Assembly (NCBI GenBank): GCA_964016885.1
Contig: OZ024743.1
Span: forward strand, 259,594,001-259,658,000
Length of the DNA: 64,000 bases
From: Eledone cirrhosa
Lineage: Eukaryota
Direction: 5' to 3'
Below, piece by piece: positions 51,784 to 52,448 of the stretch. Each line of letters opens with the position of its first letter. Within the stretch, counting starts at the first letter, position 1. The notes under the pieces were generated by a model. The model ran no database searches and was not told the DNA's origin. It saw nothing but the letters and a program-made list of their open reading frames with translations. Both the position numbers and the translations under genes were made by a program.

Positions 51784-52441
51784 ACTCATGGTTGGGTGCG
51801 GATGCATTCATGTATATGTGTGTGTCCGCATATATCTGTGTGTTTCTAAATATATTGTTAATAACTCCCTCTGGTCGAGCAATCTTTGAAGTGTGGGGAC
51901 TGCTGGAAAGCTTTCATTACTCATACTTCTCCCTCCTTCACCACCTCTTCTACGGCTTCGATATAAGTACCCCCTCCGCCTCCGTGGTATTTTCTTCGGG
52001 GTTATAAGAGGCTTAGCTCTGTTTCTCGACCGTTATATCACGTGACTATCTCCCCCTCCGCCTTTTGGGATTCTTTCTCACGTTGTGGAGACGCGTTCTT
52101 GAGACTAGTAAAATGAGGTATCCTCTTGATAAGTCGGCAGACCTCGCAAGGACTCTATATCTTTATGATGTATTGTTTTTGTTTATGCCACGAAACTACG
52201 TAGTCGAGGAATCTAGGAGCAGTTTAGGTATGATACATTTTATTACTAATTATATCTAAATGTTTCTTCTCTCTTCATAATGTATTTTTAACTCTGATAC
52301 TGGTTCAGTCTGGTTCAACCGGATTGGTCTGTCCCAGTCATTCATTGAGCAACATCGGTGAAGTTGGCACCCTTAACTCATGGTTGGGTGCGGATGCATT
52401 CATGTATATGTGTGTGTCCGCATGTATCTGTGTGTTTCTAA

Positions 52442-52448
<7 letters not shown>
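51784..52448 (+). mobile_element. ORF-less terminally redundant HHR element (retrozyme-like), period 592 bp
   Basis: 73-bp direct repeat 51784-51856 / 52376-52448; internal HHR; TA-rich microsatellite flanks. Confidence 0.85.
52121..52210 (+). ncRNA. Type I hammerhead, U3-A8 core (same sequence as 43682-43771)
   Basis: TCCTC-TTGATAA-GTCGGCA...TGCCAC-GAAA-CTACGTAG-TC-GAGGA. Confidence 0.9.

Follow-up and report, generated by a model that had tools for sequence, protein, structure and literature searches.

In the present study, we analysed a 64,000-nucleotide stretch of the Eledone cirrhosa genome (hereafter the window) and found that positions 51784-52448 are a copy of a 593-base non-coding repeat with a hammerhead motif, which was most likely inserted into a (TA)n tract by the RT/endonuclease of a Penelope-like element (PLE). 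The repeat most likely represents a new family of animal non-LTR retrozyme that is mobilised by PLEs. According to the available portions of two reports, animal retrozymes are tandem and non-coding, make circular RNAs, and are related to the pseudo-LTRs (pLTRs) of PLEs (PMC7229834; 10.64898/2026.07.22.740005). We consider it probable that the explanation holds as a whole, namely that a PLE inserted a retrozyme copy from a template of more than one unit, for which a circle is favoured at about even odds.

The locus consists of one full unit on the plus strand (51784-52375), which has 592 bases, one fewer than the 593 of most copies in the genome. It is followed directly by a partial second unit (52376-52448, plus strand), which repeats unit positions 1-73, is identical to 51784-51856 at 72 of 73 bases, and ends at a position termed start site A, where the 3' end of the insertion lies. 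BLAST alignment of the unit with its own locus returned positions 1-592 at 100% identity and then positions 1-73 at 98.6%, which confirmed an earlier note, made from the letters of this DNA, that had described a 592-nt unit with a 73-nt repeat of its start. A 5'-truncated second copy with its own hammerhead motif and a site-A 3' end was found at 43575-44008 on the plus strand, comprising unit positions 231-592 and 1-73. The same note had listed this copy and its common 3' end, and both were borne out: positions 43575-43874 matched 52014-52313 with 98% identity over 300 bases, and the two copies end in the identical junction TTTCTAAATATATT followed by ATAT. The flanks agreed with the further claim that both copies lie in TA microsatellites. 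The main copy is preceded by (TA)n and then a short (CA)n tract (51680-51783) and is followed by (TA)n (52449-52479), and the (TA)n at 44009-44073 separates the truncated copy, at its 3' end, from the 3' end of an older PLE remnant on the opposite strand.

The unit contained no long ORF, as had also been claimed: its longest stop-free frame has 80 codons, that of a head-to-tail trimer has 121 codons, and frames of more than 80 codons around the unit were microsatellite translations. Four PLE protein frames gave no match inside the units, Pfam detected no RT or endonuclease domain in 14 long frames of the 64-kb window, and Rfam reported no family at gathering score across the whole window. Because 51784-52448 carries a single ribozyme motif, it would release no unit-length RNA even if it were transcribed and cut, and it is thus a product rather than a source. 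The copy appears to be a one-armed insertion that was primed at site A, with a cDNA that ran 665 bases and ended at unit position 1. A fixed internal RT start site at unit position ~73, combined with a 5' end at unit position 1, explains the 73-base terminal redundancy, so that the redundancy taken alone is no sign of a circle, and on this point the earlier suggestion of a circular or multimeric template needs changing. The wider reading of the element as an animal retrozyme that uses PLE machinery fits the lack of an ORF, the dispersal and multimeric state of the copies, and the PLE signature of their insertions.

A hammerhead motif of type I, in the U3-A8 minimal (PLE) form, was recognised by eye and with a descriptor at 52116-52214 on the plus strand, the strand of all its parts below, with the predicted cut after C 52205. 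Helix I has 5 bp and an open end (52121-52125 with 52206-52210) and is extended by pairing of 52116-52119 with 52211-52214. The core UUGAUAA (52126-52132) is followed by helix II (52133-52191), which starts with a G-C pair and has 6 bp with one bulged C and then a long hairpin. GAAA (52192-52195) and a palindromic helix III (52195-52204) come next, and then the UC cut site. The motif stands where the earlier note had placed a U3-A8 hammerhead cut at 52205, with all core bases and three helices. In the truncated copy, the core is at 43687 and the predicted cut is after 43766, also on the plus strand; on the unit, the predicted cut falls at 422/423. The traits described for the minimal hammerheads of PLEs match this motif, U3-A8 covariation included, and hammerheads of that type are described as cleaving poorly in vitro, as far as the available text of the source extends (PMC4209133). 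None of the Rfam hammerhead models reported the motif at gathering score, nor at E up to 10 over 51700-52500, where the only matches at E up to 10 were microsatellite-driven miRNA matches. The descriptor matched the window at two places only, which are the main and the truncated copies. Composed after the motif had been seen, it matched once in 200 dinucleotide-shuffled windows and did not match any of 5,000 shuffled units. A 49-codon ATG frame (52114-52260) was also observed, which begins shortly before the hammerhead core and reads across it; the arrangement recalls an Anolis PLE in which the ORF begins inside the ribozyme, and the frame may be left over from a PLE N-terminus.

The motif was well kept among the copies. 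Each core base was present in at least 140 of 142 sampled units, all six of the paired-position variants seen in at least four of the 142 units keep the pair, and pair-breaking variants occurred in at most two units, although the sampled sites were picked by a word covering part of the hammerhead, which inflates motif conservation there. In contigs of four public runs of unknown kind, the unit sequence was also present in three organisms, where changes in the hammerhead were confined to the outer part of helix II. The outer helix II hairpin folds far better than shuffled sequences (z -4.5). Monomer RNA in the predicted ribozyme-cut form reached -176.3 kcal/mol, compared with -146.5 +/- 6.1 kcal/mol for shuffled sequences (z -4.9). 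Two further RNA hairpins were predicted on the plus strand: one at unit 1-60 (51784-51843; -24.9 kcal/mol, z -3.7), just 5' of site A, and one at unit 423-493 (52206-52276; -21 kcal/mol, z -3.8), just 5' of a second start site, site B. The latter takes up the 3' strand of hammerhead helix I. Sites A and B each lie in an unpaired A/U-rich stretch directly 3' of a stable predicted hairpin.

To estimate the size of the family, the genome was searched with the unit and with short words. The best 40 of 1,543 first-look candidates gave 163 matches with 94-100% identity; among these, the full-length unit matches were 97-100% identical and many stood head to tail. A 30-base word across the predicted cut occurred 1,550 times with C at unit position 430, the form found in the window, and 5,078 times with another letter there (T in all the matches listed), and the reversed-word controls for both forms gave 0 occurrences. 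At least 6,628 units with a hammerhead motif make up the family, and they are dispersed in the Eledone cirrhosa genome. Since the window copy has C at unit position 430, it belongs to the minority subfamily. The element had earlier been called young, which was supported, but the window copy, which departs from nearly all sampled copies at 8 positions, is not brand new. Among the sampled copies, 29 informative variants were found in many combinations. Units within arrays were 591-593 bases long and arrays contained up to 6.4 units. A signature of A>G editing was not seen, as rare A>G changes numbered 21 (0.17 per A) and T>C changes 48 (0.23 per T).

The architecture of the insertions was determined in two samples. 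For the main sample, we took the first 100 matches of the cut-site word by position on one contig, which yielded 70 sites fetched with flanks and 106 mapped arms. The second sample comprised 20 sites of the other (majority-word) subfamily, giving 90 sites in total; both samples were chosen by an exact cut-site word, so that very short arms and decayed copies are under-sampled. The 3' ends of the 106 arms fell into two groups, with 50 at unit 69-81 (site A, ~73), 54 at unit 480-502 (site B) and 2 elsewhere, and 50 of the 54 site-B ends were exactly at unit 502. Site A has the sequence GTGTTTCTAAATATAT in the retrozyme. Site B (unit 494-502; 52277-52285, plus strand), which ends in CATAATGTAT, lies 80 bases 3' of the predicted cut and is unused in the window copy. 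At 95 of the 106 arm ends, the sequence ran into at least 10 of 12 alternating TA letters. The 5' ends were variable and spread across the whole unit. Local 5'-end hot spots were nevertheless visible at unit 1-11, ~215-220, ~365 and ~513 (in the window 51784-51794, ~52000, ~52148 and ~52296); the mild one at unit 1-11 coincides with the base of the hairpin that precedes site A, and that at ~365 lies inside the helix II hairpin.

Among the 70 sites, 31 were two-armed, 36 were one-armed and 3 were compound. All 31 two-armed sites were head to head, with the 5' ends joined and the 3' ends facing outward. In 29 of them, one arm ended at site A and the other at site B, and the combinations A + A and B + B were each found 0 times. 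The two arms of one site agreed at 267 of 280 lineage-marker positions, compared with 69% agreement between sites, indicating that they arose in one event from one template lineage. At the 33 inner junctions, the arms overlapped by 1-9 bases in 19 cases, met bluntly in 8 and were separated by filler in 6. The second subfamily showed the same two 3' ends, and 8 of its 9 two-armed sites were A + B pairs, the exception being L142; one site (L131), compound with an older copy, was left out of that count. At none of the 90 sampled sites was the unit contiguous with a PLE ORF, and 3 sites had unrelated PLE ORF pieces in their flanks. As the copies were also often multimeric, these observations answered a check proposed earlier, in which copies were expected to be tandem and never joined to an RT ORF. 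Flanking duplications and Helitron-like ends were not seen in the sampled flanks. A separate idea, that sites A and B are a duplicated module, was rejected, because their likeness was within chance (323 of 2,000 shuffles).

PLEs in the same genome were then compared. A genome search for GIY-YIG gave 10,597 first-look candidates, and one ORF-bearing PLE family, PLE-117, has a long open frame (938 codons at locus L117) and is present in the window too. It carries a U3-A8 minimal hammerhead in both of its flanking repeats, a 1,071-base pLTR repeat flanks its ORF, and a 40-base word of it occurred 12,064 times at up to 2 mismatches. Copies of PLE-117 have two end sites, which are separated by 74 bases, and at both they run into (TA)n. 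Two-armed copies with one end of each kind made up 3 of 3 chance finds and 18 of 20 sampled pairs, 2 of the 18 being a few bases off and L146 and L160 being the exceptions. The window contains one such two-armed, 5'-truncated insertion (22769-23145), in which the minus arm runs from 22995 to 22769 and ends at reference 6135, and the plus arm runs from 22995 to 23145 and ends at reference 6061. These ends and their pairing in PLE-117 indicate that the retrozyme shows the footprint left by an RT-coding element in the same genome, and PLE-117 is a candidate for the mobilising partner.

The sequences of the two elements have little in common. The end of PLE-117, CACTTTCTAATATATA, and retrozyme site A share the word TTTCTAA(A)TATAT, in which TTTCTAA contributes only 7 bases. 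Compared with the PLE-117 region from hammerhead to end, the unit scored no better than shuffles, 158 of 500 scoring as well. Against 22 sampled PLE loci (of the 10,597 candidates), the unit showed no significant similarity and gave only low-complexity TG/TA matches. PLE-117 had no hairpins at the matching places, its stretches there folding no better than shuffles, and Rfam at gathering score found no family in 10 PLE loci. An older PLE-117 remnant (44063-45484, minus strand; 86-89% DNA identity) retains traces of the RT/endonuclease frame and ends in CACTTTCTAATATATA followed by (TA)n. It is with this remnant that the truncated retrozyme copy shares the tract at 44009-44073, and retrozyme and older PLE 3' ends likewise face each other across one (TA)n at L079, L066 and L080, which suggests either that insertion itself creates the tract or that TA tracts left beside elements serve again as targets. 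The short two-armed PLE-117 insertions (L146-L165 and window 22769-23145) were very often found to start at reference 5907-5913 in both arms, ~80 bases 5' of the PLE hammerhead cut. This common start position accounts for the recurrence of inverted ribozyme pairs at a spacing of ~106-111 bases, and the pile-up has the look of an RNA with a discrete 5' end, set by a transcription start within the pseudo-LTR, that was copied to its end from both sides. A PLE-like frame of 1,096 codons was also noted at another locus (L116, C1:83810500-83818500), with an RVT_1 match, GIY-YIG found by the genome search and a TG/TA-rich tract after it; with only 35% protein identity to the PLE-117 remnant of the window over the aligned stretch, it represents a separate family, which is a further possible partner.

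The insertion of the retrozyme may be pictured as follows. A PLE protein complex, probably a dimer, would cut both strands of a (TA)n tract, and each DNA 3' end would prime cDNA at one of two single-stranded A/U-rich sites in one retrozyme RNA, each priming site standing directly 3' of a predicted hairpin. The variable 5' ends of the two cDNAs would then be connected, in many cases by microhomology of 1-9 bases. Copies with one arm, including that in the window, would result from a single priming event (site A for the window copy).

The nature of the template was assessed from the length and content of the arms. In the main sample, 40 of 104 arms (38%) were longer than 593 bases and 5 were longer than 1,186, and the longest arm in the top-scoring sample had 3,787 bases; the template was therefore longer than one unit. 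At about even odds, we favour a predicted circle, cut by the hammerhead, closed by a ligase and copied repeatedly, over a multi-unit linear transcript. The competing explanation keeps insertion by a PLE but holds that the template is always a linear multi-unit transcript from genomic arrays, that the hammerhead was inherited from a PLE ancestor and that there is no circle; we regard it as a serious contender with a minority share of our confidence. About 9 of 135 arms started at unit 1-11, compared with 2.5 expected, which is the pattern of a fixed transcript start and points to linear transcripts of constant 5' end as some of the templates. PLE-117 likewise makes copies of more than one unit, with its pLTR repeat around the ORF, and in both of its arms the 5' ends concentrate at a single position. 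Arms of more than two units numbered only 5 among the 40 that passed one unit, which is fewer than expected if copying stopped at a constant rate on an endless template. A few arms contained units that differ at lineage markers (five within-arm differences after removal of junction and homopolymer artefacts), a misfit to pure copying of a single monomer. An excess of 5' ends at the predicted cut (unit 423) was not found, with 6,868 occurrences of the word just 3' of the cut versus 6,628 across it. In the one PLE tested in this respect, that of Anolis, the RNA used in vitro was mainly the uncut form, ribozyme mutants had no effect on insertion, and 0 RNA-seq reads ended at the cut site (PMC11167929).

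Several observations speak against a template that is always linear. Two or more ribozymes on the same strand were present at only 15 of the 70 sites, yet 40 of the 104 arms exceeded one unit. Truncation at the 5' end in each round should shrink arrays unless they are regenerated, and the many combinations of the 29 informative variants point to many sources rather than to a few long master arrays. The unusual stability of the monomer RNA on folding also speaks against an always linear template, as does the formation of circles by related elements of other animals in the available part of PMC7229834. One 620-base public contig from another organism (depth 8) has a 30-base end overlap and would close into a cycle of ~590 bases; such a contig is expected from a tandem array and from a circular molecule alike, and the source run is of unknown kind. 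In its most specific form, the circular reading is that a PLE dimer holds one small circular retrozyme RNA at the two hairpin-flanked start sites and carries out rolling-circle, twin-primed RT from both strands of one (TA)n cut, which we put forward tentatively, as something possible rather than probable. If true, this process would regenerate multi-unit arrays from monomer circles and would explain the rule of one end of each kind.

Three other explanations dispense with the retrozyme, and each has little probability. That the unit is the pseudo-LTR of an ordinary autonomous PLE, and its copies solo or truncated pLTRs, would accord with the hammerheads carried by PLE pLTRs and with the resemblance of retrozymes to pLTRs described in the available part of 10.64898/2026.07.22.740005, and PLE-117 does leave thousands of short two-armed copies with pLTR only. 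We nevertheless judge this very unlikely, because the unit was contiguous with an RT/endonuclease frame at none of the 90 sampled sites, its arrays are pure multimers of 591-593 bases, and it bears no similarity to the 22 PLE loci. A DNA-level repeat, whether a satellite spread by unequal exchange or segmental duplication, a re-inserted extrachromosomal circular DNA or a rolling-circle DNA transposon, is slightly less credible again. Head-to-tail arrays do exist and the ~590-base contig from another organism closes on itself, as a tandem or a circle would, but such a repeat fits poorly with thousands of dispersed short insertions that have two fixed 3' ends and variable 5' truncation, with head-to-head arms joined through microhomology in a (TA)n target, and with insertion features held in common with the RT-coding PLE-117. 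The least credible explanation is a SINE copied by a LINE. The element is short, non-coding, abundant and 5'-truncated, as a SINE would be; against this, ARAGORN detected no tRNA-like part, the copies have no poly(A) or LINE-type tail and end at internal sites in (TA)n, and the two internal 3' ends with inverted arms are of the PLE kind.

We therefore return to the retrozyme inserted by a PLE and compare it with known systems. Like the animal non-LTR retrozymes, it has a non-coding unit of low GC content (about 43%) with one type I hammerhead, forms head-to-tail multimers, has no LTR, PBS or PPT, and co-occurs with PLEs, the window copy amounting to only 1.12 units. The likeness is one of genomic criteria, cleavage and circular RNA being predicted here. 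The 593-base unit falls inside the 51-972 bp range given for retrozymes in the available text of the preprint 10.64898/2026.07.22.740005 and is longer than the 170-400 nt retrozymes covered in that of Cervera and de la Pena 2020 (PMC7229834). The hammerhead here belongs to the minimal U3-A8 type of PLEs and its helix II spans 59 bases, whereas those of the animal retrozymes are, in the portions of the literature available, canonical with a loop-loop contact. Unlike the arrays of described retrozymes, those here are short (at most about 6 units in the samples) and dispersed. The family thus differs from described retrozymes in its minimal U3-A8 ribozyme with a very long helix II, in its size and in its short dispersed arrays. 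Plant LTR retrozymes are similar in being non-autonomous and hammerhead-bearing and in having a size that fits a circular RNA of ~600 nt; as described in the accessible part of PMC4918200, they have type III hammerheads in LTRs, a PBS and a PPT and depend on Gypsy-type LTR elements, none of which applies here, where helix I is open (type I), LTRs are absent and only the unit repeats.

Resemblances to PLEs were found both in the ribozyme and in the insertions. The hammerheads of PLE pLTRs, including the Schistosoma Cercyon U3-A8 variant, share with the motif here a U3-A8 core, a G10.1-C11.1 pair, a long helix II with a bulged base, a 5-bp helix I and a small palindromic helix III suited to dimer action, as set out in the available part of PMC4209133. 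Unlike them, the present motif lies in an ORF-less 593-base unit rather than beside a PLE ORF, and helix II bears an extra 46-base hairpin. Insertions of PLEs have been reported to form partial tandems accompanied by an inverted copy with 5' truncation, to carry a 'tail' at one end and to favour (TA)n (Craig et al. 2021, PMC8557442, available sections). The same traits of canonical EN+ PLEs, namely the partial tandem, the inverted 5'-truncated copy, the extension at one end only and the (TA)n/AT-rich target, were seen in the retrozyme, which differs from them in having a unit without an ORF. Chlamys non-autonomous elements such as MRC1 of Chlamydomonas are likewise protein-less PLE dependants with pLTRs and head-to-tail multi-copy insertions; in the sections of PMC8557442 available, their 3' ends are like that of their autonomous partner and canonical hammerheads are missing, whereas the retrozyme has only a 7-base end word in common with its candidate partner.

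A purified PLE protein has been shown to cut and extend both DNA strands and to initiate at two positions inside the RNA (Frangieh et al. 2024, PMC11167929). As in that Anolis Poseidon element, the retrozyme has two internal start sites 3' of the hammerhead, and site B lies 80 bases from the cut, compared with about 85-92 bases. The start sites are 163 bases apart in the retrozyme, 74 in PLE-117 and 30-40 in Anolis Poseidon. The two retrozyme sites have a few bases in common with the TA target, whereas that of Anolis shows no homology to the DNA that is cut. In genomic terms, the rule of one end of each kind corresponds to the 'tail' at one end in Craig et al. and to the two start sites and two-strand extension in Frangieh et al., and it thus supports the known model rather than pointing to a new kind of element.

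The retrozyme and PLE-117 together provide a clean genomic read-out, in which hundreds of young insertions show two fixed start sites, each arm using one of them. This read-out matches the in vitro action of one purified PLE protein in its two-strand extension and two internal start sites. To our knowledge, the copying of animal retrozymes by PLE enzymes from circular RNA has been proposed but not yet shown. A young and abundant pair of retrozyme and PLE makes both the dependence on the PLE and the choice between circle and multimer directly testable. Among the papers listed in a literature search, cephalopod or octopus and retrozyme were mentioned together only in Craig et al. 2021 (PMC8557442), whose single use of retrozyme is unrelated to cephalopods. 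Elsewhere in the window, open frames of equal length on both strands (e.g. 323 codons each) were observed at 12398-13382, 16020-16542, 18712-19402 and 21104-21602. The Pfam matches of one such paired frame were weak and probably spurious, and the pairing itself suggests long palindromic or low-complexity repeats.
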